Shown here: positions 4,057-51,703 of the stretch, one piece after another
Numbering within the stretch: position 1 is the stretch's first letter
Layout: each line of letters opens with the position of its first letter
Assembly (NCBI GenBank): GCA_903936565.1
Contig: CAIZVZ010000001.1
Location: 159,905-223,904 of the forward strand
Source: an uncultured bacterium
Lineage (GTDB): Bacteria; Patescibacteriota; Minisyncoccia; Phycocordibacterales; CAIZLB01
DNA: 64,000 nt
Direction: 5' to 3'
Translations under genes and position numbers: made by a program
Notes under the pieces: model-generated
Told to the model about the DNA's origin: nothing
What the model saw: the letters and a program-made list of their open reading frames with translations, nothing else
The model's database searches: none

Positions 4057-4707
4057 GTGAAAAACAACATCGCGTCAGCAGTCATCGCCGCAACCACACT
4101 GACACAAGCCCAATTCGCCGCCGGCGCCACCACAAGCTTTTTCTACAAAGCAGGGTCAGCCGGAAGCTACATTGCCCAGGGATCAGCGGGTTATATATCA
4201 AACGGACAAGGAGGTTGGGTTTTATCCACACCCCTTGACCAACCATATGATAGCTCCATCTTTATAAGGATGGTCGAAGGTAATTACAACCAATACTGGT
4301 TTATTCACCTTGACGGTCCTGCGGGTCAGACCCTTACCGCTGGAGTCTATCAGGCTAACCGCTGGCCATTTCAAAGCGCAAGCAAGGCGGGTTTTGACTG
4401 CGCTAGCAGTGGTCGCGGACTTAACATGTCAACCACCTACCTGGAGATCATTGACTTCCAACAGGACCCGATCACCAAGATTGTGAAAACGTTAGTGTTC
4501 AACGCCCTTCAGTTTGAGGAAGTTGAGAGCAACACGAGTCTGAACCTCGACACAAACCGCTATGCATTCCTATCCTACAGCTTTGGCTCGGATGCTAAGA
4601 TCAACGTGTCACCGTCCGCGGCTTTACTGGCCATGACTGTGCCGGAGCCATCAGGGTGGCTACTTGCGGGACTCGGCGCATGCCTCATCATCAAACGTCG
4701 GCGGTAA
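4057..4707 (+). CDS. PEP-CTERM sorting-domain secreted protein
   Basis: GTG start and a signal-like N-terminus. The C-terminus VPEPSGWLLAGLGACLIIKRRR is a textbook PEP motif followed by a TM helix and an Arg cluster. It lies in a locally GC-rich stretch. Confidence 0.6.
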   Translation: MKNNIASAVIAATTLTQAQFAAGATTSFFYKAGSAGSYIAQGSAGYISNGQGGWVLSTPLDQPYDSSIFIRMVEGNYNQYWFIHLDGPAGQTLTAGVYQANRWPFQSASKAGFDCASSGRGLNMSTTYLEIIDFQQDPITKIVKTLVFNALQFEEVESNTSLNLDTNRYAFLSYSFGSDAKINVSPSAALLAMTVPEPSGWLLAGLGACLIIKRRR

Positions 4708-5949: not shown

Positions 5950-6011
5950 TATTGTATATTATGTGTTATTATTGTTAAATAGTTCGGCGAATTACGAATA
6001 ACAACTAAAAT

Positions 6012-6785
6012 ATGACCCAAAAAACAACGACCGAGAATCTATTCAAAACACTACAAATTAAGCCTAATGCTCAGCTTGTTTTGGACTACCTAATTAAGCA
6101 TGGACTGTCCCCTGTTAAAGACATTGCTCATTCTTTGAATATGCCTAAATCAACAGTCTACGATTCCCTAGACGAGTTAGTCACCCAAAGTTTAGTCATA
6201 GAATACTCTGAAGAAAGAGGGCGGGTTTTTGGTATTGCAGACAAAGAACAGATTGCCAAAATTAGCGAACAGAAGATCAATGAACTCAGAGACAATCAAA
6301 GTAAATTAATTGAGTATATAAAAAATACAGAACGTGAAGACCCCTCCTCAAAACCAAAGATAAAATTTTATTTTGGTAAAGAAGGAATTAAACAAGCTTT
6401 TAGAGATACAATGTGGAATGAGAAATGTAAACAAACTTATCTAATGTGGTCCACAAAGTATATGTTAGACATGCTTGGACCAGAGTTTAGCGAATGGCAT
6501 AGTTCAATGCGCCTACGATACAAGATTGTATTAAATGTAATTAGAAAAAAGGAAGATAAAAAACTTGATAAGACCGAGGGTCTTAAAGAGGGTTGGAATA
6601 GTTTTAGAAATATTAGACAGGCTCCCAAAAATATTGATTGGAACATGAGCTATTGGATCTACGACAATAGGGTTTTATTTTCTGGCGGAGGAAGCGACAA
6701 ATTCGCTTTTATCGTGCACGACAAAGAATTTGCAAATCTAATGATAACTTTATGGAAGCAAGTATGGGAAATTAGTGAGAAATAA
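6012..6785 (+). CDS. TrmB-family transcriptional regulator (paralog of 3118-3927)
   Basis: N-terminus NAQLVLDYLIKHGLSPVKDIAHSLNMPKSTVYDSLDELVTQSLV is a wHTH of the TrmB type. The divergent arrangement with an SBP is the same as at 1810/3118. Confidence 0.6.
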   Translation: MTQKTTTENLFKTLQIKPNAQLVLDYLIKHGLSPVKDIAHSLNMPKSTVYDSLDELVTQSLVIEYSEERGRVFGIADKEQIAKISEQKINELRDNQSKLIEYIKNTEREDPSSKPKIKFYFGKEGIKQAFRDTMWNEKCKQTYLMWSTKYMLDMLGPEFSEWHSSMRLRYKIVLNVIRKKEDKKLDKTEGLKEGWNSFRNIRQAPKNIDWNMSYWIYDNRVLFSGGGSDKFAFIVHDKEFANLMITLWKQVWEISEK

Positions 6786-6819
6786 GGCCTATACCCGATA
6801 TGACTAATACAAGGCAAGC

Positions 6820-7686
6820 CTACAGCTTATACTCCCCCATGAATCCTTGTGGTCTATACATCATCAAGAACAATAGGAGTAAGCCATAAACAACCTGCCT
6901 CATTTGTGCGGCAACGTCTGTTGGAAAGCCAACGAAGCGCAGTGCTTCGGGTAGTAGCATCAAGAACACTGTTCCCCAGAACACTCCCTTGTTGCTAGCA
7001 AGCCCTCCTAATATTACAATCGATAAAATAAAGATTGATTCATTCAATGAAAAACTTGATGGATCAATGAATGTAATGTAAGAAGCAAAGAGCGCGCCAG
7101 CAATAGCTGCCATTCCTGCGGCCAACACAAAGACAATCATTTTATATATTTTTGTATTATATCCAAAGACAGAGATTGCTTGCTCATCTTCTCTAATTGC
7201 TTTTATTACCCTACCAAAGCTTGAACCAACAACATATTGTGACAACAGATATACAAGAAGTGCGAGAACGGCAGAGAGAATCAAAAAATGTAAATTTGAT
7301 TTAAAAATAAAATCAAATATTTGTGGGCGTCCGATTCCTGGAATTCCGAGAGGTCCTCTTGTTAGACTTTGCCAGTTCAGCATTATACTGAATGCAATAA
7401 TATTAAAACCAAAGGATGCTAGTGCATAATAATCCCCTTTAAATTTGCCGAGAATCGCTCCAAGGACAAGGGAGACAATCATTGCGATTATCGCTCCAAC
7501 AATCATCGCAAAGAAAAAGTTCCAACCATATGAAGTCATGAGTATTGCCGTGCCATATGCCCCTACCCCAAAGAACGTGGCGTGTGTAATTGAAAGCAGC
7601 CCCGTGTATCCCACTACAAGGTTGAGACTGATTCCAAGTATTGACCAAATTGAAATTAAAACCAAAAGGTGAATTATATATTCCAT
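6820..7686 (-). CDS. Branched-chain amino acid ABC transporter permease (LivM-like)
   Basis: 288-aa polytopic membrane protein with a LivM/LivH-type permease signature. No second permease or ATPase gene is adjacent. Confidence 0.7.
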   Translation of the reverse strand: MEYIIHLLVLISIWSILGISLNLVVGYTGLLSITHATFFGVGAYGTAILMTSYGWNFFFAMIVGAIIAMIVSLVLGAILGKFKGDYYALASFGFNIIAFSIMLNWQSLTRGPLGIPGIGRPQIFDFIFKSNLHFLILSAVLALLVYLLSQYVVGSSFGRVIKAIREDEQAISVFGYNTKIYKMIVFVLAAGMAAIAGALFASYITFIDPSSFSLNESIFILSIVILGGLASNKGVFWGTVFLMLLPEALRFVGFPTDVAAQMRQVVYGLLLLFLMMYRPQGFMGEYKL

Positions 7687-10116: not shown

Positions 10117-11334
10117 ATGAGAACACAAAGCATCGTTGCCTCGGATGGCGACCAAAATACCATCACACAGTATTTGACACTGATGTCGCTCACAAGCTTC
10201 GCAAGGGGTGTAATTGCGACAATCTACGTTCCATTCCTGCTGTCACACGGACTCAATCTGTTTGACGTAGGGCTGGTGAATTTCATCTTCTACTCCACCC
10301 TTTTTATCTGCGAGATTCCAACCGGAGCCTTTGCCGATATTTTTGGGAGGAAGTCGTCGTTTGTACTGTCTAGCTTTATCGCTTCAATCGGGGCGTTCAT
10401 GTACGCTTCGTCAACAACCTTCTGGGGCTTCGCGGCTTCAGAGGCAGTTCTGGCGATTGGTTCGACGTTCTCAAGCGGCGCGTTCAAAGCTTGGCTTGTA
10501 GACAAACTTCAACACCATGGGTACACGGGATCCTTAAGCAAGATCTTTTCCAAGTCGCAGGCTTTCGGTTTAATCGCCGGAATTATCGCAGCACTCATCG
10601 GGGCCCAAATATCAGACATCGACATTACGTTACCATTCGTCTGGCTGGGAATTATGTCTTTCATAACCGGAACAATCACATTGTTTTGGATCAAGGAAGA
10701 ATACTTCGTCAGGAAGAAATTCTCATTCAAGCTTGGACTCTTGGCAATGAAGGAAACCACAATGCAAAGCATTGAGTTTGGACTGAAAAATAAGGTGGTT
10801 CGATTCCTCCTAATAATCGGTCTGATTCAAATCTTCGCTGTTCAAGCACTAAACATGCAATGGACACCGTATTTCCTTGAGTACTTTCAGGATAAAAAAT
10901 TCTTGGGGTATCTCTGGGCCGGTATGATGCTTGGCCTGACGGCGGGATCATTTCTCGCCAGCAAGTTCTTGGCGCTTGTCAAAGACGAAAAGAAAGCGTT
11001 GATTATTTGTCAGATGTTGATTGGTGTTGGGACGGTGGTGGTAACACTTCTGCCGTTTCCATTAGGGATTACTCTTTTTATTCTTCATGAAATTCCAAGG
11101 GGGATGTTCGCTCCTCTGAAGGACAAGTTCCTTCAAGACAATATTCCCTCACACGCGCGAGCAACAATCAGTTCCTTTGAATCCATATCGCCCCATCTCG
11201 GTGGAATGTTTGGACTCATTGCGAGCGGGTATATTGCAAACAAGTTTGGAATTCCAGCTTCGTGGATAATGTCGGGGTCTCTCATGATCCTCTTCTCATT
11301 ACTCGTTGCGAGGAACGATTCGAAAAAGCAGTAG
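10117..11334 (+). CDS. MFS transporter
   Basis: 405 aa, 12-TM-like topology, with the MFS motif GAFADIFGRK in the loop 2-3 position. Confidence 0.7.
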   Translation: MRTQSIVASDGDQNTITQYLTLMSLTSFARGVIATIYVPFLLSHGLNLFDVGLVNFIFYSTLFICEIPTGAFADIFGRKSSFVLSSFIASIGAFMYASSTTFWGFAASEAVLAIGSTFSSGAFKAWLVDKLQHHGYTGSLSKIFSKSQAFGLIAGIIAALIGAQISDIDITLPFVWLGIMSFITGTITLFWIKEEYFVRKKFSFKLGLLAMKETTMQSIEFGLKNKVVRFLLIIGLIQIFAVQALNMQWTPYFLEYFQDKKFLGYLWAGMMLGLTAGSFLASKFLALVKDEKKALIICQMLIGVGTVVVTLLPFPLGITLFILHEIPRGMFAPLKDKFLQDNIPSHARATISSFESISPHLGGMFGLIASGYIANKFGIPASWIMSGSLMILFSLLVARNDSKKQ

Positions 11335-19952: not shown

Positions 19953-20672
19953 TTATTTCAACACTTCGACTAAGTACTCATAAGCCTTCGGTATCCAACT
20001 ATCTACATCAGGCTCATCGGACCAAAGCTTTCGAAGATACTCTTGATGCTTGGTGTGATCTGGATAACCAAAAACCTCCACCTCACCCTGCAATTCATTA
20101 AATTCAGGCAACGCTTGTACAACATCATTGAATAATTCTGCCAACGTCCAAAATATTCCATTATTAGTATTTAGCCCGTCAAAGATACTATTAAATCTCT
20201 TAACTGCATAATCATAAAAGAAAAAATGTAGTATCTCGTGAATAGCCACGCTATTTGATCCACTTCTATGCTTATAAAAAACTTGAAAAGTCTTATTGTT
20301 CAAGAATCTTGGATTACAATTAATTATTGATAAATATCCAGTCCACTTCCCTTCTGGTTTAATCGGATTTTTAAATATTTTGTTTATCTGAACTGCGAAT
20401 CCATCCTCAATTTTTTTCCAATCGTTTTTACATCTTAATAGGTCGCCCTCCAACTCCTTCATATTATCTTCATAATATTTATCAAAATACATATCAATAG
20501 CATTTCTCCTTTCAGAGTCATCTAGATCCTTGATTATTTCAAGCTCTGGATGCACAGCTGTAACACCTCTAGAAAAATCGACACCTCCAACCTTACCTGA
20601 TCTACTAGTGAAAACAAAAGCCATTTCCTTATCCAGATCCTTGTTTAATTCGAATTTTATGTCTAAATTCAT
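19953..20672 (-). CDS. Hypothetical protein with an HExxH motif
   Basis: AIHEILHFFFYDY is an HExxH motif, so a Zn-hydrolase-like protein is possible. I recognise no family. Confidence 0.3.
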   Translation of the reverse strand: MNLDIKFELNKDLDKEMAFVFTSRSGKVGGVDFSRGVTAVHPELEIIKDLDDSERRNAIDMYFDKYYEDNMKELEGDLLRCKNDWKKIEDGFAVQINKIFKNPIKPEGKWTGYLSIINCNPRFLNNKTFQVFYKHRSGSNSVAIHEILHFFFYDYAVKRFNSIFDGLNTNNGIFWTLAELFNDVVQALPEFNELQGEVEVFGYPDHTKHQEYLRKLWSDEPDVDSWIPKAYEYLVEVLK

Positions 20673-20726
20673 ATCTAGATTATACCACGGGAGATTTAAG
20701 TGCGAGAGGTATGATACAATATTCCT

Positions 20727-21953
20727 ATGTCAGACTATATATCACGTGTTAAGGCCGTTAATTTACCCGAGGGTGAATTCTTTGTTTGTGGCAGTGCGAT
20801 CATGGATGTACTTGGAATACGCAAAGCAGCGGACATGGATATACTAGTCTCCCCTCGCTTATATGAAAAATTAGAAAAAGAAGACGGTTGGAAAAAGCAT
20901 CCGAAATACAATATTCTTCAAGACAAAGATAAGATATGTGGAGCGAAGACCACGTTAGACTTTATGAAGGAAAACTATTCTCTTGAAGAAGTTTTACCTC
21001 TTGCTACTTATATTGAAGGTGTACCATTTATGAGTCTGGAAATGCTAATTAATGCAAAAGAACAAATGGGTAGAGAAAAGGATTTTGCAGATATAAAGTT
21101 AATAAAAGAATATCAATATTTTAATTCCATCAAAGGCAAAATTCTGGATTCTAAAGGCTATAGAGAAAGATTGAAAGGTATCTCAAATGACGATTTGTAT
21201 TGTTATGAATTGCACAATGACGAGCGAGCCCTGTATTATTTTGGAGTTCGACATTCATCTGATGTCGACAACCCAATGTTTCTAAATTTAAAACAGACAT
21301 TTATGGATTTTAAGCCTGATATGGTTCTAGTAGAGGGTAACCCAAGAATTAATGACGACAGTGAAAGTTACAGAGAGGAATTAAGAGCGATGAGCGAAGA
21401 TGAAGCTAAGACTAGAGGTGAATCAAGATACACCCTTAAACTATCGTCAGACAATAACATTGATGCCTACAGCCCAGATCCAGATGTTCCAGAGGTAATA
21501 GAGTACTTAGTTGATTTAGGATATACACAAAAAGATATATGTTATTTTTATTTATATTCTGAATTACACAGATACGCCAGAGGTCTGCGTGACGACTCGT
21601 TCATATCCTCTGACTTTGAGGAATACATTACTCCGCAAATTGAAGAATTGGCATTATACAAAGGTTGGACAACAGAGACATTGAATGAACTGGTTCACGA
21701 ATGCGTTTCCAATATTACATCAGAAAATATGGACTACTGTATTGATCAACTCTCCCCTATTCCAGAAGAAGGAGAAACTTATACCGTCATTAATGAGATA
21801 TCCCAGCAATCTAGTTATTTTAGAGATCTATATATTGTCAAAAAAATAATCAAATATGGCTTACAATATAAAAGATTATTTATTGTATTTGGTTCAGGGC
21901 ATGCAATAAAAGAAGAAACTGCCTTGAGAAGTTTTTTTGAGTTATTAAATTAG
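20727..21953 (+). CDS. Two-domain protein: N-terminal minimal nucleotidyltransferase-fold domain fused to a TraB/GumN/TIKI-like domain
   Basis: N-terminus CGSAIMDVLGIRKAADMDILV (hG[GS]...D.D.h NTase motif) is paralogous to the ORF at 28128-28532. The C-terminus has VLVEGNP ... FIVFGSGHAIKEE, reminiscent of the TraB/GumN GAGH motif. Confidence 0.4.
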   Translation: MSDYISRVKAVNLPEGEFFVCGSAIMDVLGIRKAADMDILVSPRLYEKLEKEDGWKKHPKYNILQDKDKICGAKTTLDFMKENYSLEEVLPLATYIEGVPFMSLEMLINAKEQMGREKDFADIKLIKEYQYFNSIKGKILDSKGYRERLKGISNDDLYCYELHNDERALYYFGVRHSSDVDNPMFLNLKQTFMDFKPDMVLVEGNPRINDDSESYREELRAMSEDEAKTRGESRYTLKLSSDNNIDAYSPDPDVPEVIEYLVDLGYTQKDICYFYLYSELHRYARGLRDDSFISSDFEEYITPQIEELALYKGWTTETLNELVHECVSNITSENMDYCIDQLSPIPEEGETYTVINEISQQSSYFRDLYIVKKIIKYGLQYKRLFIVFGSGHAIKEETALRSFFELLN

Positions 21954-21955
21954 TT

Positions 21956-22324
21956 TTATTTAATAAGGAAATCAGTTAGCTTCTTAACCATATCTTCAGA
22001 TGAAGAATATTCTATGACTTCGGTAGCGACACCTCTCACTGAATTAGAAACGATTGAATCACTTTTATGTAAAAGAATTACCGGAACATTATACATATCT
22101 GCCCAACCTATCTCGATACCTATTGCCACAGAAGGATACGATACTTCCGCAATCATATAATCAACAGACTTAAGCTCTTCTCTACTATCGAAGATATCGT
22201 CATCATTTTCATGAGGTAATATTATCTCAGCAACCTTATTTAATTCACTATCACGAATAGGCTTATACAGTTCATTTTTGTAATCATCTTTCCTAGAGTG
22301 GGCCACGTATATTTTCATAGGCAT
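21956..22324 (-). CDS. Nucleoside 2-deoxyribosyltransferase-like (NDT/LOG-SLOG Rossmannoid) protein
   Basis: KIYVAHS ... MIAEVSYPSVAIGIEIGWA ... PVILLH fits the NDT-like fold. The likely start is ATG 22324, which sits directly after a TATAAT box. Confidence 0.5.
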   Translation of the reverse strand: MPMKIYVAHSRKDDYKNELYKPIRDSELNKVAEIILPHENDDDIFDSREELKSVDYMIAEVSYPSVAIGIEIGWADMYNVPVILLHKSDSIVSNSVRGVATEVIEYSSSEDMVKKLTDFLIK

Positions 22325-22470
22325 ATTATACAGCAATAATGTTATTGCTGAAAAGCGCAGTTTTGTTGCGAGTAAAATGACCCATCATTAAGATATTAGT
22401 ATAAATGAAAAGACCATCAACCTATAACGGCGCCAGGGTTGATGGGCTTTCCGTGTTAAGATTGATGGAA

Positions 22471-23514
22471 TTATTTGGTTAACAGTGATCTTGGGAACTC
22501 TGTTACCAAACAGTGAATACCGGCATACATCCAAGCTGGATAGTATTGAATTGGAACGCTCGTCGTGACAATCTGCTGACCCGTGATGGAACGTAACATT
22601 TCTGTTACTTCCGTTGCACCACCAGTCATTAGAATTCTCCCGTCAAAAAACTGTTGCAAGTTAAGGGAGTATGGAACAGTAGAACGTGGCGCCCTATGGA
22701 CCGTGATACCCTTTGACTCACAAGCTCTATGTAACACAGACATCGTCTCATCCAACAGCATCGATCTCCAACTTTGAGCTGAATCATTAATTACACTGGC
22801 TGTGACAATATTATGATCCACCACAAGATGAAGCCCTCCACGCGTATCAGAGACTAGACAAGAAACCCGGTCACAATGACCAAAAAATGCCAGTTGACCA
22901 GTAAGACTTCCGTCCTTTAGGAAGCCCATAACAGGGGCTGGGAACATGACTGTTTTCATCCCAGCACTCACGAATGGCTCCAAATCACTTTCGCAAGCTT
23001 GGCGGTTCATAGGCACATTGTCACAGAAAGAAATAATACGATCGCAGACAACAGCCGCTCCACTAGCAAGAAGGACTGAACCCCCATCACCAATTGGAGA
23101 TGATGTAATCCTGCAACCATCTATGACCCTATCAATTGAGGCATAGACACAATTCAAGAGCACTCGACCGGGGATGGTCACCACCAAATCACGAGGACAC
23201 AGCGCTAAACCAGCAGGGAAATCAGAAGGAAACCTGATAAAACGATACCCTCTAGCTAAATAGTTACAGATAGCTGTTGAGTCCAATTTATCAGGGCGGG
23301 CATGCGCAATTTGGAAACGGTACCCCATCTCATTAAGAGCTGTGACTATGGAACCGTGTTCGTCCCGTAGCCGTCCCTCTATATGTGATGGCGTATTATC
23401 GTTTGCAAGAATGGAGGCAATAAGGCCCGCTTGATGTATAGGAACCGGAAACCGTCCGTCCTCCGGTACATCAGGCAGAAAAATTGGCGCTCCGACCAAG
23501 TATGAAGTTGTCAT
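22471..23514 (-). CDS. Guanidino-group-modifying enzyme superfamily protein (agmatine deiminase / amidinotransferase / PAD-like)
   Basis: The C-terminus AGIHCLVTE matches the conserved G-x-HC-x-T nucleophile motif of amidinotransferase-fold enzymes. The gene is GC-rich. Confidence 0.45.
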   Translation of the reverse strand: MTTSYLVGAPIFLPDVPEDGRFPVPIHQAGLIASILANDNTPSHIEGRLRDEHGSIVTALNEMGYRFQIAHARPDKLDSTAICNYLARGYRFIRFPSDFPAGLALCPRDLVVTIPGRVLLNCVYASIDRVIDGCRITSSPIGDGGSVLLASGAAVVCDRIISFCDNVPMNRQACESDLEPFVSAGMKTVMFPAPVMGFLKDGSLTGQLAFFGHCDRVSCLVSDTRGGLHLVVDHNIVTASVINDSAQSWRSMLLDETMSVLHRACESKGITVHRAPRSTVPYSLNLQQFFDGRILMTGGATEVTEMLRSITGQQIVTTSVPIQYYPAWMYAGIHCLVTEFPRSLLTK

Positions 23515-23641
23515 TTTGTTTTTATTCTATTGTTGAGGTTGGAAATTTAGAACCCAGTTCCTCGGGAACAGTTCAGACCGAACAATAACACTTAAATTAA
23601 TGCCGGTCAATGATGTCTGTAACATAATCTATCATTATATT

Positions 23642-23680
23642 AAAAGTCAAAACCGCGCTTGCCCAGGTGGGCAAGCGCGG
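23642..23680 (-). terminator. Strong intrinsic terminator between the 23699 gene and the GME gene
   Basis: Perfect 13-bp stem ccgcgcttgccca/tgggcaagcgcgg with loop gg, followed on the minus strand by a U-run. Confidence 0.65.
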
Positions 23681-23698
23681 CAATACGGGGCTTTTAGA

Positions 23699-24278
23699 TT
23701 ACCCGCCGTGTTCACTGAGCCATTTCTTAACCACAGCAGATCCCCAATCGTCATCGCTGACATCAAGGGTTGTGAACTTACCTGCCATAGCCGACTGTAC
23801 CTGATGTAAAACCGTCTCCGGCTGCAAATTGAGCAAGTCGATGATTCTTTCGATGTCGCTATCGCCAAGCTCTCCAACCATCCCAATTTCCTTGGCGCGA
23901 GACCGGATTCTTTCAAACCAGACCCCATGATCCGAAACAAAATGCAAAGTGTGGTCAAGTGGCAAACTGCTCGCTATAAACGGCAGGTACTCCCAACTCA
24001 AAACGAGTTTCCCCGCTGCACTCAAGCACTTGTCCCTTATCATGTAAGCCAAGATCGGGATATCCTCCTCCAGTCTCGCTACGTAGAACTCTCTGGTCAC
24101 ACTGGCATAGAAACGACCGGTTTTTCCACCATCATCCTTGAGACAGCCGGGGAAGCTCCGGTTAAAGAGCTCATACCGCTCCGTCCCCTTTTCTCGCAAC
24201 TCACATTGCAGATCATTGAGGTCGCAGAACTCCCAGCCGCAATCTTCGAACGTGCCGCGGAGTTGAACCTTGGCCATT
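23699..24278 (-). CDS. Hypothetical protein (GC-rich island)
   Basis: ORF 23699-24373. The probable start is MAKVQLRG at ~24278, which avoids overlap with the upstream gene. I recognise no domain. Confidence 0.3.
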
Positions 24279-24327
24279 TGAACGGGGGCCGTAATACCAA
24301 GGATTCTTAACGTTGACGATGACTCAC

Positions 24328-25395
24328 TCACGCTGCACCCTCCATCCTGCGCTCGAGTTTCATCGAACCACACAACTCCTCAACGATACTGGGATCATGC
24401 GGACCACGCTCTTCAGGAGGACCCAGGCGGGCCACCAACGCCAACAACGTATTGTTGACGTGGACATTCCACGCTCCCCTGACAGTCTCGTGTTCGCAAT
24501 TCAATACGCAGATATCACCCCAAGGCACAGGTTCGCCAATGACGAGAGATGCCGTTCCAGGACGAGAATTGACGAAGATTTCATTGTATTCGTTTATTCC
24601 CCGTACTGGATTCAGGATATTACTGGCGTCGCAGACATATGTCGGCAGGACCAACAACTCCGCTTTTGAAGCACTAGCCATAATCTTCGGGATACAGGAT
24701 GTTTTTGGCTCGCCCAACTTCATGCACCCATCACCGCGCCCACCCTCCGGATAGAAACCGACGAGTCGGCCCCCACCCTTAACGTGACGACGAAGTGACA
24801 TCATTGCACGCTGATTCTGCGCATTCATCGCTACTTCATCGACCCCGTTTAGCCCGGCGGACAGATACTTGGCAGAAAAAATCTGGAATCGATTCATCCC
24901 GCCACAAAACATCAGCGGAATTAGATAGAGGTTGACAGCATGGCCGGACATGTATGCCCAATCCTTACAGACATCCCTTCCTAGTGCGCGGCGAACGAGG
25001 GTTTCAAAGACCATCGTATCCGCACCTGAGCGATGGTTTTGAACCATGAGGACATTTCCTCCACGGCCCATGTGTTCCAGTGCCAGCTTCATGTTATCCA
25101 TCCCAACAACCCGGGACTCTTGATTGACCAACGTGTCGCCAGCCAAATTCCAAAAATCCCGAACTGCCGGAACGGCTTGCGTCATGCCAGCCTCGAGGTT
25201 GTCCTGTGTCATGAGAGGGATGCAGGCTTGTGCGCTCGCCATTCCAGTGCTCACAAACGCAGCCCGATCAGTTGCCTTCATGCCAGCCTGCCGACAAAAC
25301 TCCGGTAGTGCTGTTCTAAGGTATTCAATAACGGCGGCTGTTTCCCCGATGCCGAAGCTCGGTACGGTACTATCTTTACTATCGTTTGGTTTCAT
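24328..25395 (-). CDS. Glycerol-3-phosphate/lysophospholipid acyltransferase family protein (PlsB/GPAT-like LPLAT)
   Basis: HX4D motif VQNHRSGADTMV and the EGGR motif GFYPEGGRGDG. Confidence 0.6.
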   Translation of the reverse strand: MKPNDSKDSTVPSFGIGETAAVIEYLRTALPEFCRQAGMKATDRAAFVSTGMASAQACIPLMTQDNLEAGMTQAVPAVRDFWNLAGDTLVNQESRVVGMDNMKLALEHMGRGGNVLMVQNHRSGADTMVFETLVRRALGRDVCKDWAYMSGHAVNLYLIPLMFCGGMNRFQIFSAKYLSAGLNGVDEVAMNAQNQRAMMSLRRHVKGGGRLVGFYPEGGRGDGCMKLGEPKTSCIPKIMASASKAELLVLPTYVCDASNILNPVRGINEYNEIFVNSRPGTASLVIGEPVPWGDICVLNCEHETVRGAWNVHVNNTLLALVARLGPPEERGPHDPSIVEELCGSMKLERRMEGAA

Positions 25396-25552
25396 CTTGT
25401 CTTATAATCGGTGGTGTATAGTTGTGATTGCTCGATCGGAGTACTTACCCTAAGGTCCAATATTCCATTAAAAAGAGCGACTTGAAACAATATTCACATA
25501 TTTTCTGCATTTGTCAAGTCCGTTGTGCATACGCCTGTAATAATATCTCGTA

Positions 25553-38100: not shown

Positions 38101-38871
38101 CTATGCGGCGGCAGTTGGCAGATAGACCGAGCGCATGGCTCTATATTCTGAATCGGCGAATCTGACCTCCTGATCCTCCGTTGTTTTGGAGTATCCGAGG
38201 CTCTTGGTTGGAACGATGTTCGGATCCCGAACCGCTACGACACGATAGAAGTCGTAGAGAGTTTCGTTTCGATTAAACGTCCCGCCGACACGGCGTTTTT
38301 TGGGCCCACTCCTGACGACGGGGCAGTCAATCATCCAAAAATACCGATCCCCCTCGTTACACCCGACACCTGCAATCGGGAACTTGGTCTGCAGATTGGG
38401 TTTCTGAGCGCTGAGAGCCAGGATTTCTTCGACCAAAACTGGCCGATATCCATATGCTGTCAGCTCTGCAAGAACCTCTTTGTGAGACATCTGACGACCC
38501 TTACCGAAGTGAAAGATGGTCAGGTTCACGTCCTCTTCATGGGCGCCCGTGAATGAGCGATCAGGGATGGACTCGGCAGGTTGTGTTTCGCAACCAGTCA
38601 AAGCCGCAGACTGCCGCAGGGTGAGCTGGCGATTCAGCCTTACCGTCACACTGAAGTGAGTAGGTTCGGGCCATTTTTCCAATCCGAGCGCTGGTCTGAC
38701 ATCACCCCGCACAAGATACCCGCGCCTGCGGATACTCTCGACGAGATCCGTCAGGATTCCAGACTCTAGGATTTGCTGCCATTCTCCCCGGGTAACACCC
38801 AGTGGGGCGAGCACATTTTGGTAGAGATGCTCGAGTTGTTCTTCTGTCAGTTGATTATTATTCGTTTTCAT
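38101..38871 (-). CDS. Hypothetical protein (GC-rich)
   Basis: 256-aa ORF whose composition differs clearly from the flanking genes. No recognisable domain. Confidence 0.35.
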   Translation of the reverse strand: MKTNNNQLTEEQLEHLYQNVLAPLGVTRGEWQQILESGILTDLVESIRRRGYLVRGDVRPALGLEKWPEPTHFSVTVRLNRQLTLRQSAALTGCETQPAESIPDRSFTGAHEEDVNLTIFHFGKGRQMSHKEVLAELTAYGYRPVLVEEILALSAQKPNLQTKFPIAGVGCNEGDRYFWMIDCPVVRSGPKKRRVGGTFNRNETLYDFYRVVAVRDPNIVPTKSLGYSKTTEDQEVRFADSEYRAMRSVYLPTAAA

Positions 38872-39809: not shown

Positions 39810-41459
39810 ATGAATACAACCATGCAACTATTCGCCGCTGTTGGCCCACTTGGAGCCGGCAAGACGACGTTTGTCCTGAACGTGATTCAGGCGTTAGAAT
39901 CCAGCGGATTTCCAACTAGAGAGAAAGTCGCCTTTGTCGTCAACGACGAAGGTCACATGCTCGATGGTGAGCTCGCAGGTAATTTGGCAAAAGTGGTCGC
40001 CATGACCAATGGATGCTTCACATGCAGCGACACCGCGGGACTCAAGACTACCCTAGCGAAACTTGAGCAATCAGGCATCACTTGGGCATTTTTGGAAGGC
40101 TTCGGCATCACTGCAGGAAATGAAACAAAACAATTCCTCGAATCGTGTCCGTACCCATTCCATATCCTCTGTCTTTTTTCGGCAAGGCATCACACCCTCG
40201 ACCTCATCAGGTATGCGGGCGTAGTGAAAAGCCAAGTGAGAGCCGCAACCCTGGCGGTTGGCGTCACCAAGTTCGAGGGTGGCAACATCCTAAGCCTTGA
40301 TGATTCAGGTATTCCGGAATTCGTAGCAGAAGAAAAACCCGGGATACCGCTCGTCCTTATTCCAAACACTCCCAACATTCCAGATGTCATCCTAGACATT
40401 TTCACAAAAGATGACAAAGGGGCGATGAGGAGACTTGCATCAACGTCAAATAGTGTGATTTTCCGAGATTTTAGACGCAGGCACCACACAAGCTGCGATT
40501 GTTGCGGACATGACCACAACGACCACTCGCACGATCATTATGTTCACGGTATGCACCCGTACTCCTATGAACTCATAGATGGAGCAACTCTCGAAGATCT
40601 CCGTAGGGCGTTCGACGGGAAGGAATTCCTACTCAGAGTAAAGGGTGCGGTTGGCGGACATCTCTTCAATGCGGTGCACGACGAATGGCAAGAAACGATT
40701 AAGGATCAAAGAAGGTTCGTTACGTTCTACACTTCGAGAGAGGTGAATATCGAAAGCGACCTTCCAGGCCTGACAGAGATTGTTGTCACCCAAGAAGTAC
40801 CTGCTGGGATGGAACCGGGATACAAGCTTATCCGCATGGAGACAGCAAGCCGCGATGAGACTATCCGGGAAATCAATGACCTCCTTGATGGGTCACCTAC
40901 CGAGCCTGTTGTGATTAGTTCTGAAGCTGGACTCCGCCTCATCACTCATCCAGAAAAATTCCAGATCGCCAAGGAAATCTCCCGGAGACCGTACGTTATT
41001 GACGAATGGTTCCCCCGTGTTCTGAAGCGCTTCATGAAATACTGGATTCGATGTGCGGAAATAGTAAAAGATCGTGCAAGCGAAATCGTCCCCGATGACA
41101 TCGCAAAAAACAGACACGAGCTAGCTGTGTCGATGGTCTGGTGGGTTAATCGCCACGGCGAATTCTTCGGAGCCGAAATTGTACAAGCGGTTGAAAGACT
41201 GCATCCAGGAGAAATGGCTGCCCAGGGAATCCTTTCCCTCCAAAGTCTAATCTCGATCACGCATCCAGAAACGGTTTCGTGGCAGTGCCTGGAATTCACT
41301 GAGGCTTTAAGCTATGGCTTAACACACGGCGACAATTCAGAGAGTATGCTCAAGGCAGCTCGTCACTGCCTATCCCTTGCTACAACGCCCGATCTGATTA
41401 AAGCCTGGTCGGAAAGTGTCGGAATTCTTGAGGAAAAATCCCGCGCAATTATTGCGTGA
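39810..41459 (+). CDS. COG0523/CobW-family G3E GTPase (putative zinc metallochaperone) with a His-rich insert and a ~250-aa C-terminal extension of unknown function
   Basis: Walker A GPLGAGKTT, VVNDEG, a variant metal-binding motif NGCFTCS (canonical GCxCC) and the His-rich stretch HDHNDHSHDHYVHGMH. At 549 aa it is much longer than typical (320-400 aa). Confidence 0.65.
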   Translation: MNTTMQLFAAVGPLGAGKTTFVLNVIQALESSGFPTREKVAFVVNDEGHMLDGELAGNLAKVVAMTNGCFTCSDTAGLKTTLAKLEQSGITWAFLEGFGITAGNETKQFLESCPYPFHILCLFSARHHTLDLIRYAGVVKSQVRAATLAVGVTKFEGGNILSLDDSGIPEFVAEEKPGIPLVLIPNTPNIPDVILDIFTKDDKGAMRRLASTSNSVIFRDFRRRHHTSCDCCGHDHNDHSHDHYVHGMHPYSYELIDGATLEDLRRAFDGKEFLLRVKGAVGGHLFNAVHDEWQETIKDQRRFVTFYTSREVNIESDLPGLTEIVVTQEVPAGMEPGYKLIRMETASRDETIREINDLLDGSPTEPVVISSEAGLRLITHPEKFQIAKEISRRPYVIDEWFPRVLKRFMKYWIRCAEIVKDRASEIVPDDIAKNRHELAVSMVWWVNRHGEFFGAEIVQAVERLHPGEMAAQGILSLQSLISITHPETVSWQCLEFTEALSYGLTHGDNSESMLKAARHCLSLATTPDLIKAWSESVGILEEKSRAIIA

Positions 41460-41466
41460 AAACCCG

Positions 41467-41517
41467 CCGCGACGCTTCAAATAGCCCACGGGTGAAATGG
41501 GCGTCGCGGCTTTTTAT
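41467..41517 (+). terminator. Stem-loop followed by a T-run between the COG0523 and NAS-like genes (terminator or attenuator)
   Basis: 9-bp stem ccgcgacgc/gcgtcgcgg with a long structured loop, followed by ctttttata. Confidence 0.4.
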
Positions 41518-41524
41518 ACAACAG

Positions 41525-42340
41525 ATGATAAACATAATTTTACAAAGAAAAAAAGACGAAATCCTCAACATTTATGAGGAGCTTTTGTCTGCAAAGAATT
41601 TGAAGCCATCTAAAAATATTAACGCCACATTTTCCGAGCTTGTGGCGATAGTACAAGATACACCCATTGAGCATTCAAGAGACATTTTGGATAACATTGA
41701 GATTCGAAAGATTCAAGACGATCTCCGGAGGATGTCATCAAGAGCAGAATCAGAGCTTGAGCTATTTTGGGTTAAGAATGTCCTCAAATCCCAGAACGCA
41801 GAAAAAATACTTAAGTTTTTTCCATATTACTCGAACTATGAGAAGATGTCCGATCTGGAAATCAAGAGTATGCAACTCTGTGATGTTCATAAGGGTCACA
41901 AGGCTTTGTTCGTAGGCTCTGGACCATTACCACTTTCTTCTATTATGATGGCTCGCAAGTGTGGAATATCAATCGATAATTTAGACATGGATGACGAGTC
42001 CTGCAAGTTATCAAAAGAACTTATTAAAAAGATTGGTCTTTCAAACAAAATAAAGACCATCAAAGGGAATATTCTTGACATACAAGATCTCTCTAATTAC
42101 CAAACAATCTTCATTGCTGCACTTGCAGGAGAAAATGATGAAGAGAAGGTAAAAATAATCGACCACATTGTCGCAAGGAGCAAAACAGATACCCACATCG
42201 TTATGCGTAGCGTAAGTGGTCTCGGTGTACTACTCTATCCCGAGATATCATCGACGCATCTGAAGAACATCAAGGTCATTCGCAGAAGTAAAAGCCCTCG
42301 CGATATTATTAACAACATAATCATAGGAAAAATAAAATAA
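41525..42340 (+). CDS. Nicotianamine synthase-like protein (NAS/CntL family; SAM-dependent aminobutyryl transferase)
   Basis: ALFVGSGPLPLSSIMMA and TIFIAALAGENDEEKVKIIDHI match the conserved NAS motifs (VGSGPLPL; FLAALVGM..EEK.K). The likely start is ATG 41525 (MINIILQ), although the track ORF begins at 41456. Confidence 0.65.
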   Translation: MINIILQRKKDEILNIYEELLSAKNLKPSKNINATFSELVAIVQDTPIEHSRDILDNIEIRKIQDDLRRMSSRAESELELFWVKNVLKSQNAEKILKFFPYYSNYEKMSDLEIKSMQLCDVHKGHKALFVGSGPLPLSSIMMARKCGISIDNLDMDDESCKLSKELIKKIGLSNKIKTIKGNILDIQDLSNYQTIFIAALAGENDEEKVKIIDHIVARSKTDTHIVMRSVSGLGVLLYPEISSTHLKNIKVIRRSKSPRDIINNIIIGKIK

Positions 42341-50962: not shown

Positions 50963-51703
50963 ATGAAAAGAACCATCAGCTATGAATGGAGAGGCCCGGA
51001 AGAGCCCCTTGATTCACGCATTGTGACCGCCTGCCGTATGAGCATTTACGAGGTTGAAGACAACGGAGATCGGCTTACCGCCAGAGGAAGCTTTACTTTA
51101 CACGACCACGCCGAGGGATGCAAAGGTGAGGATCCTTGGATTGCCGTTGGAACGTGCTCGAACGACACATTCGAGTGGGTAGTCCAACGTGCTAAACCAA
51201 CCCCAGATGAGTTTGTCTTTACCAGCAGGAGCGGTGAACCACTCTTCTGCTTGAGTGATAAAACAAATGCTGCCATCAAAGCATTCATCGCAAGCAAACT
51301 CACGTTGATCACTCGAAGCGCCAGAGAGAATCCAAACACAAATCCCTTCCACATTGTACATCAACCGATGCGGTATGTCGGCCCGATAAGTAAATACAGA
51401 GGGGCATGCATCTGTCACGAGATTGCGCTGTCAAACAATGTTCAGCCATTTGATTGGGAGACCCTTACCGATGGCGGAAAGTACCCATCCAACTGCTTCG
51501 AATGCAGTTGTGGCACTGGATGGTTTCGTATCAATCCCTCAAACCAGTGGTGGGTTCAAGTTGTAGATCAAAATGCATGGCGGATGCTTACCATGTTTAA
51601 TGGAACAGCAGTAGAGCCGATCGATTTTGATCCACGGTCCCAAACCTCACTCGTCATGCTCGTCCGAACTATACGCGCGTTTGGCTTAATACCAATCGGC
51701 TGA
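50963..51703 (+). CDS. Cys-rich hypothetical protein (GC-rich islet)
   Basis: 246 aa with many Cys/His/Trp residues (CICHEIA, CFECSCGTGW). Its composition differs from its neighbours. Confidence 0.35.
   Translation: MKRTISYEWRGPEEPLDSRIVTACRMSIYEVEDNGDRLTARGSFTLHDHAEGCKGEDPWIAVGTCSNDTFEWVVQRAKPTPDEFVFTSRSGEPLFCLSDKTNAAIKAFIASKLTLITRSARENPNTNPFHIVHQPMRYVGPISKYRGACICHEIALSNNVQPFDWETLTDGGKYPSNCFECSCGTGWFRINPSNQWWVQVVDQNAWRMLTMFNGTAVEPIDFDPRSQTSLVMLVRTIRAFGLIPIG

Follow-up and report, generated by a model that had tools for sequence, protein, structure and literature searches.

The chlamydial enzyme PlsE is a characterized soluble glycerol-3-phosphate acyltransferase (GPAT) that depends on acyl chains bound to acyl carrier protein (ACP) and is kin to the plastid enzyme ATS1 (PMC6167442). 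In Chlamydia trachomatis, where it is encoded by CT807, such an enzyme works in a host-dependent bacterium (PMC6167442). One question still open for bacteria of the candidate phyla radiation (CPR, or Patescibacteria) is how membrane lipids are acquired and put together in cells that lack fatty-acid synthesis and, it seems, ACP (PMC7242380, PMC11665869). In one set of CPR genomes, neither ACP-dependent enzymes nor a complete pathway of lipid biosynthesis was found, and the corresponding membranes are of the acyl-glycerol type and rich in lysolipids (PMC7242380). Here, we describe a GC-rich islet of three genes, named g3, g2, and g1 in the order of transcription, in a 64,000-nt stretch of contig CAIZVZ010000001.1 (assembly GCA_903936565.1), hereafter the window. 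The islet consists of a two-gene operon, g3-g2, and an unrelated single gene, g1, and the two were seen side by side only in this species. We conclude, with a probability of roughly 0.6, that these are functionally independent, horizontally acquired units that came to be chance neighbors in an AT-rich, probably CPR, genome. The operon is predicted to encode a soluble acyltransferase of the ATS1/PlsE type and a divergent protein with the fold of dephospho-CoA kinase (CoaE), and g1 a guanidino-group-modifying enzyme (GME) of the pentein superfamily.

The islet (22440 to 25400) has a GC content of 49.4%, compared to 36.7% in the remainder of the window, and is the maximum among all 2.96-kb segments of the stretch (mean, 37.4%; standard deviation, 3.5%). 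The initial annotation had singled out the block as GC-rich and possibly foreign, and both points held: its composition is clearly atypical, which is one hallmark of a classical genomic island. The GC content at third codon positions (GC3) is 0.55 for g3, 0.59 for g2, and 0.40 for g1, against a window median of 0.31 with a median absolute deviation (MAD) of 0.04, which makes g3 and g2 outliers at 6 to 7 MADs over the median. The excess in g1 lies mainly at the first and second codon positions (GC1, 0.54; GC2, 0.46) and less in GC3, and its difference in GC3 from g3-g2 suggests different acquisition histories for the two units. In a 150-nt profile, GC content goes up at the 3' end of g1 (~22450) and down at the start of g3 (~25400). 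These steps match the edges of the coding sequences, and the spacer between g1 and g2 falls to ~40% GC.

All three open reading frames (ORFs) are intact and lie on the minus strand (Table 1), and the motifs that the initial annotation had quoted (NHRSGAD, FYPEGGRG, and GIHCLVT) were all found in the translations. Contigs from several independent samples carry these three genes in an unchanged context, and the arrangement is therefore no chimera or other artifact of assembly. Public gene calls and the alignment of homologs agree on the 210-aa start of g2; a longer, 224-aa ORF is the mechanical maximum only and was rejected in favor of this start.

Table 1. Features of the islet, its candidate transcription signals, the other GC3-rich ORFs of the window, and the related loci that carry the gene pair (positions are those of the window)
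Feature	Position	Strand	Description
g3	24328-25395	-	355 aa; NHRSGAD at residues 120-126, FYPEGGRG at residues 214-221
g2	23699-24331	-	210 aa; GTG start overlaps the TGA stop of g3 as GTGA
g1	22471-23514	-	347 aa; GIHCLVT at residues 332-338, followed by 9 residues
Candidate promoter-like site upstream of g3	25489..25517	-	TTGACA, 17-nt spacer, AATATT; 10/12 consensus matches
Intrinsic terminator of g3-g2	23642..23681	-	13-bp perfect stem, 4-nt loop, tail TTTGACTTTT
Two candidate promoter-like sites between terminator and g1	23582..23650	-	TTGACT-18-TATGTT; TTGACC-17-TATTGT with upstream TG
Terminator-like hairpin after g1	22409..22450	-	14-nt arms, 93% complementary; U-rich tail UCUUUUCAUUU in RNA
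GC3-rich ORF	4057-4707	+	216-aa protein, C-terminal PEP-CTERM motif
GC3-rich ORF	10117-11334	+	major facilitator superfamily (MFS) transporter
GC3-rich ORF	38101-38871	-	256 aa, no Pfam match
GC3-rich ORF	39810-41459	+	CobW/HypB/UreG-domain protein, CobW-like GTPase
GC3-rich ORF	50963-51703	+	246 aa, no Pfam match
Loci with g3 and full-length g2			L011, L014, L016, L017, L018, L020, L022, L023, L024, L025, L041

The division into two units is based on comparative evidence. We fetched 14 other distinct loci with a g3 homolog and searched them with tblastn. In 11 of the 14, g3 is immediately followed by a full-length g2 homolog, and start/stop overlaps of 4 nt join the two genes in the window and in at least five other loci; g1 is absent from all 14. 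Conversely, neither g3 nor g2 was found in any fetched locus of the g1 family. An all-against-all comparison of the flanking ORFs in the g3 loci recovered g3-g2 as the only conserved neighborhood, with heterogeneous immediate neighbors. Co-conservation of all three genes, which the initial annotation had left to be checked, was thus not found elsewhere within the data at hand (the 14 g3 loci and the fetched g1 loci).

Candidate transcription signals divide the islet at the same place. The initial annotation had reported a perfect 13-bp hairpin terminator between the GME gene and the other two, and we recovered it: the arms of the inverted repeat (23653-23665 and 23668-23680) are 13 nt long and 100% complementary, the hairpin scores as a minus-strand terminator with a T-rich tail (TTTGACTTTT), and the predicted RNA fold of -30.7 kcal/mol stands out from shuffled sequences (z = -5.65). 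Between this terminator and g1 are two promoter-like sites with 9/12 consensus matches each, and the promoter-like site upstream of g3 sits in AT-rich, host-like DNA; all of these sites are consensus matches only and no proof of function. A second hairpin follows g1 (fold, -20.7 kcal/mol; z = -3.9), and in the closest relative of the cassette, locus L041, a similar GC-rich hairpin and T-run follow g2. We picture g3-g2 as one translationally coupled unit, which would have a single promoter and a terminator of its own, and g1 as a second, monocistronic unit. Coupling of the pair is probable given the overlap of the g2 start with the g3 stop, and g2 would then probably be made in a fixed ratio with g3.

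The g3 product is predicted to be a soluble acyltransferase of the lysophospholipid/acylglycerolphosphate acyltransferase (LPLAT/AGPAT) superfamily, closest to the plastid ATS1/chlamydial PlsE type. The superfamily model PF01553 matches g3 at 24.5 bits (Pfam cut-off, 23) and all 32 family members (32/32), and the family is small, with 39 clusters among 5.8 billion proteins. Across its 32 sequences, H121, D126, K176, and the block E217-G-G-R220 are invariant. Searched against all PDB chains, the g3 family profile found acyltransferase matches only to plastid GPATs (8ia1, 1iuq, and 1k30; E = 6.5e-10 to 1.1e-9). The protein has no hydrophobic or transmembrane segment (maximum 19-residue hydropathy, KD19, of 1.16). 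These results sharpen the earlier statement that the enzyme is closer to GPAT/PlsB than to PlsC: the GPAT side stands, and PlsB gives way to ATS1/PlsE as the nearest relative, given the profile matches in the PDB and the PlsB model TIGR03703, which matched 1 of the 32 family members (E = 0.26).

We propose that g3, by means of the His/Asp pair of the HX4D motif, most likely acylates a hydroxyl group on an anionic acceptor, with a pantetheine thioester as the source of the fatty acyl chain. The acceptor is probably phosphorylated, either glycerol-3-phosphate or a lysophospholipid. The donor is probably acyl-CoA, the more plausible choice because no ACP-dependent enzymes were found in the CPR genomes of PMC7242380. 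The g3-g2 unit would then serve the assembly or remodeling of membrane glycerolipids from scavenged parts, without de novo lipid synthesis.

The middle gene had been described as lacking a recognizable domain, a view that its family profile overturns. On its own, g2 gave no useful match in Pfam, NCBIfam, or PDB sequence searches. We assembled a family set of 12 homologs, three from the protein search and the others translated from the fetched loci, and its profile matched the dephospho-CoA kinases 2if2 and 2grj in the PDB (E = 2.4e-4), with a CoaE annotation on 10/13 of the matches listed. The Pfam CoaE model matched 5 of the 12 members (best E = 2.2e-6) and TIGR00152 matched 1 of the 12 (E = 0.084). 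Invariant residues in the family are Q18, K21, N39, W113, W138, R141, and D195, with K21 as the P-loop Lys. In the 2grj match, the counterpart of R141 is an Arg that we took as the lid Arg. Based on these matches, g2 is probably a divergent CoaE-fold protein, with kinase activity uncertain. It would act on the CoA side of the pair, either by phosphorylating dephospho-CoA to supply CoA or as a protein that binds the acyl donor through its nucleotide moiety, and the g2 and g3 proteins may be physical partners.

For g1, the guanidino-group-modifying fold that the initial annotation had proposed was supported by structure prediction rather than by sequence matching. As a single sequence, g1 had no match in Pfam (E <= 1), NCBIfam, or the PDB. 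A word-indexed search found four clusters, and an exhaustive HMMER search with the four-sequence profile extended these to 259 clusters at E <= 0.001, 127 of them at E <= 1e-30. None of 71 relatives matched any Pfam family, the GME models included. Of the families that the initial annotation had named for a hidden Markov model (HMM) check, PF02274 (ADI/amidinotransferase), PF04371 (PAD_porph/agmatine deiminase), and PF19420 (DDAH), none matched g1 or the 71 relatives. A profile of the 71 sequences likewise found no GME or related chain in the PDB by sequence.

An AlphaFold2 model based on the 71-sequence alignment reached a predicted local distance difference test score (pLDDT) of 95.3 and a predicted template modeling score (pTM) of 0.93; it replaced a first model from the four-sequence alignment, which was discarded at a pLDDT of 54.5. 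In a Foldseek search of the PDB with this model, the best 40 matches were all GME enzymes (E = 1.5e-7 to 1.6e-4; probability, 0.99 to 1.00; TM-scores, 0.35 to 0.52; identity, ~10%), among them PAD4, AGAT, arginine deiminase (ADI), ArgZ/AgrE, DDAH, agmatine deiminase, StrB1, and HsvA. The sole significant viral match of g1 was to a phage glycine amidinotransferase. Based on the model, g1 is predicted to be an enzyme of an undescribed family in the pentein/guanidino-group-modifying superfamily.

The Cys/His/Asp set expected of such an enzyme is present on alignment. Conservation among the 71 relatives is 70 for C335, 68 for H213, 71 for D215, 68 for D109, and 71 for E52. The corresponding motifs are PRD (107-109), S139, G142-x-GG145, H213-x-D215, and GIHC335, and the loop S139-P-x-G-E-G-G is almost invariant in the same set. 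By motif and position, C335 is presumably the equivalent of the catalytic Cys, and we take H213, D215, and D109 to have roles of the type of H278, D280, and D166 in ADI. The encoded protein would thus be a cytoplasmic Cys/His/Asp enzyme in which C335 attacks the guanidino carbon of the substrate, H213 assists, and the guanidinium is kept in place by D109 and D215. The reaction would pass through a covalent S-alkylthiouronium intermediate on C335 and end with release of ammonia or transfer of the amidino group. The likeliest substrate is a small guanidino compound similar to arginine or agmatine. No pentein subfamily is clearly the nearest, and g1 may be either a hydrolase or a transferase.

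The named relatives of g1 that were looked up are hypothetical proteins from Paceibacteria-type CPR metagenome-assembled genomes (MAGs) and one Verrucomicrobiae MAG. Among 11 g1 loci with usable flanks, no neighbor was common to any. An apparent synteny between the window and locus L001 (a NUDIX gene, g1, and a 122-aa gene) was rejected, as it came down to a NUDIX match of only 29% identity in the other orientation. Downstream of g1 in the window are three genes of host-like composition (19953-22336; 239, 408, and 126 aa), none of which matched Pfam in precomputed results (for the 408- and 126-aa proteins also in a direct scan).

The g3-g2 cassette is patchily spread. Its carriers are labeled Saccharibacteria, Saccharimonadales, Andersenbacteria, Magasanikbacteria, Taylorbacteria, unclassified Patescibacteria, and, in three cases, Gammaproteobacteria MAGs, which, going by these labels, suggests exchange of the cassette with bacteria outside CPR, possibly host-associated ones. 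The Gammaproteobacteria-labeled relatives (L022, L024, and L026) are on contigs of 345 to 710 kb with 42 to 51% GC. The closest relative is L041, at 67% and 74% amino-acid identity; downstream of its cassette are the hairpin and T-run and then an ORF for a membrane protein, with no g1.

Three of the copies appear to be decaying. In L021, g2 is cut down to a 67-aa remnant (7450-7653); in L022, the g3 homolog is broken into two ORFs (6004-6912); and in L026, the g3 match covers residues 10-179 alone (6001-6504), with no g2. In L019, tblastn found no g2 homolog beside g3.

A putative tyrosine recombinase ORF, judged by eye, directly follows the cassette in L017 (5959-6927, minus strand). Among the 14 related loci scanned, three have a tRNA gene beside the cassette, at a distance of ~0.2 to 0.9 kb (L019, 7236-7309; L021, 7875-8129; and L024, 5042-5118). 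The recombinase-like ORF and the tRNAs hint that, in some genomes, the cassette sits at an island-type insertion site. At the borders of the islet in the window, we found no integrase, tRNA, or flanking repeats, and the direct repeats there are short and at chance level. A defense-system or phage origin was rejected, given no match in PADLOC or PHROGs and no viral contig with a g3 relative.

Several observations weigh against the assignments made above. For g3, the acceptor is the first of these. We take K193, H194, R235, and R237 of squash GPAT to form the phosphate pocket for glycerol-3-phosphate. In the alignment, K176 of g3 matches K193 and R220 matches R235, both invariant, and the positions of H194 and R237 show no conservation in the g3 family. 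With two of these four residues kept, glycerol-3-phosphate is not assured as the acceptor. In addition, default annotation labels proteins of the g3 type as PlsC-like. For g2, the window protein has no Pfam match and a degenerate Walker A motif, A-x4-A-K-V within GITAPVQMAKV, with Ala at both Walker Gly positions and no conserved Ser/Thr after the Lys, so that it (A-P-V-Q-M-A-K-V) departs from the pattern G-x4-G-K-[ST]. The Ala-for-Gly form is kept in its two closest relatives; most other relatives have G-x4-G-K, with S, I, Q, N, T, or V as the next residue. The catalytic Asp32 of CoaE from Mycobacterium tuberculosis aligns with the invariant N39, and one of the two residues in the CoaE pair Asp32/lid Arg140 (PMC3019153) is therefore present in the family. 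Lacking the Asp, g2 may be no kinase. The D32N variant of the M. tuberculosis enzyme retains a kcat of ~2 per min (PMC3019153), and N39 thus leaves kinase activity possible. Finally, the adjacency of g1 and g3-g2 could reflect a species-specific functional link that is hidden to comparative data.

The strongest of the alternatives concerns g3, which may instead belong, with g2, to a Lands-cycle, PlsC-like module that re-acylates lysophospholipids, using lysolipids from host bacteria. We regard this as possible, at about one chance in four. It would fit the high lysolipid content of CPR-rich fractions and the proposal that lipids are taken up from community members (PMC7242380). The incomplete phosphate pocket is also compatible with it, as are weak matches to the PlsC domain model TIGR00530 in 26 of the 32 family members (best E = 1.5e-5). 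Against it, that model gives g3 itself 21.7 bits, far from the NCBIfam cut-off of 102.95, the g3 profile finds plastid GPATs and no PlsC structure in the PDB, and g3 has no PlsC-like N-terminal membrane anchor. We favor an ATS1/PlsE-type acyltransferase for the first gene of the operon.

A second alternative bears on the origin of the islet. In almost all of its carrier genomes, the cassette stands out by its GC3, with its genes mostly ranking first or second among 6 to 18 local ORFs; L023 is an exception, and the excess is weaker in L011 and L016. In L041, for example, cassette GC3 is 0.51 to 0.53 and the flanks have 30 to 33% GC. The g1 homologs show a weaker form of the same trend. The cassette copies are only 35 to 67% identical in protein and nearly all GC3-rich, a pattern that simple amelioration of old transfers would not predict. 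The high GC could instead be intrinsic or selected, through amino-acid content, synonymous sites, or mRNA, in genes inherited largely vertically. The shared GC3 excess of such divergent copies speaks for this idea, as does the concentration of the g1 excess in GC1 and GC2. We nevertheless consider it unlikely in view of the patchy spread (the 39 clusters fall in several CPR classes and Gammaproteobacteria MAGs), of identities that do not track the labels (an Andersenbacteria copy at 48% lies between Saccharibacteria copies at 53%, 47%, and 40%), of varied neighborhoods, decayed copies, and adjoining tRNAs in three loci, and of the five unrelated genes in the window that are GC3-rich too. Under horizontal acquisition, which we prefer, the persistent GC of the cassette would reflect either repeated re-acquisition from GC-richer, poorly sampled donors or a composition that is maintained.

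We also entertain, as a long shot, the idea that, in ACP-less CPR bacteria, g2 is not a kinase and instead is a dedicated acyl-CoA-presenting, ACP-substituting subunit of a soluble PlsE-type enzyme, with the pair forming a portable "membrane-building kit" passed on horizontally among ultra-small episymbionts and reduced Gammaproteobacteria. If true, this would explain how such cells make phospholipids of their own out of scavenged fatty acids or lysolipids, and the lasting GC-richness would follow from repeated re-acquisition of, or selection on, the cassette.

The initial annotation had suggested one pathway for all three genes; in this reading, a guanidino or amino head group would be produced or altered by the pentein enzyme and then acylated by the acyltransferase, with an amino-lipid or N-acyl amino acid as the product. 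The genes are indeed adjacent, on the same strand, and within a single GC-rich stretch, and their arrangement is identical in all contigs of this species. This pathway was not borne out, and we now hold it to be very improbable: a strong terminator and promoter-like sites split g1 from g3-g2, the units do not co-occur in the 14 g3 loci or any fetched g1 locus, their GC3 values differ, and the closest solved relatives of g3 acylate the hydroxyl of glycerol-3-phosphate and not an amine. Least credible of all is a selfish or conflict module (a toxin-antitoxin system or an anti-phage system built on a P-loop kinase), which the compact, mobile, overlapping, patchy, compositionally atypical, and sometimes decayed gene pair brings to mind but which the null results with PADLOC, PHROGs, and viral contigs, and the resemblance of both proteins to housekeeping metabolic enzymes, speak against. 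Two independently acquired units remain our preferred account of the islet.

The islet is not unique in the window, where five further ORFs have GC3 values of 0.51 to 0.58, compared to the median of 0.31 (Table 1). Overall, ~10% of the ORFs in the 64 kb are compositionally foreign-looking, each within host-like AT-rich DNA. The CobW-like gene among them overlaps by 4 nt a gene of the nicotianamine-synthase family (41456-42340, plus strand; PF03059, E = 5e-50), and the two may be a metallophore/metal-chaperone pair; a small and AT-rich genome would not be expected to carry one. Frequent horizontal transfer and a high load of acquired genes have been reported for groundwater Patescibacteria (PMC12455944).

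All three proteins belong to known superfamilies; descriptions of their families are absent from Pfam, NCBIfam, the PDB, and the literature searched. That search included these families in Saccharibacteria and other CPR, and it found no prior description. We know of no earlier description of the g3-g2 pairing. Proteins of the pair are currently misannotated, as generic PlsC or as hypothetical proteins, and a cassette that moves between CPR lineages is a testable candidate for the acylation step missing from accounts of their lipid supply. The g1 family, with ~260 sequence clusters, has a complete active site for guanidino modification and goes unrecognized by domain databases, and it would add a new branch to the penteins. 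More generally, apparent "pathway islets" in mosaic genomes can be unrelated neighboring imports.

Set beside known systems, g3 shares the PF01553 superfamily with both PlsB and PlsC. The EGGR form of its block III also occurs in Escherichia coli PlsB, an enzyme of ~800 aa, and g3 has less than half that length. It differs from PlsC in lacking the N-terminal membrane anchor of that type. With ATS1 (squash 1K30/1IUQ and 8IA1), and probably with its bacterial counterpart PlsE, g3 has in common a length of ~350 to 370 aa, no membrane segment, and the HX4D and GGR blocks. The match covers the core alone (profile positions 80-215), g3 does not keep the squash residues H194 and R237, and its donor is likely acyl-CoA rather than acyl-ACP. 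To our knowledge, neither ATS1 nor PlsE is paired with a CoaE-like gene as g3 is.

The second protein of the pair resembles CoaE (PF01121; 2IF2, 2GRJ, and 1JJV) in its length of ~200 aa and its N-terminal P-loop with an invariant Lys. The alignment with the Thermotoga maritima enzyme extends over 150 residues, and an Arg of the family aligns with what we take as the lid Arg140. The protein differs from CoaE by Asn in place of Asp32, by a position after the Walker Lys at which Ser/Thr is not conserved, by invariant Trp residues and a Gln within the P-loop that are its own, and by coupling to an acyltransferase gene in the loci found. As for g1, it is predicted to share with the pentein superfamily (ADI, agmatine deiminase, DDAH, PAD, ArgZ/AgrE, AstB, AGAT, StrB1, and HsvA) the five-fold beta/alpha propeller, the Cys nucleophile in a C-terminal G-I-[RH]-C motif, the H-x-D motif, and the upstream acidic PRD. 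It stands apart from every solved member at ~10% identity, and its family is marked by an invariant E52 and by its own S139-P-x-G-E-G-G, VPYSLN, and DGRVLMT motifs.

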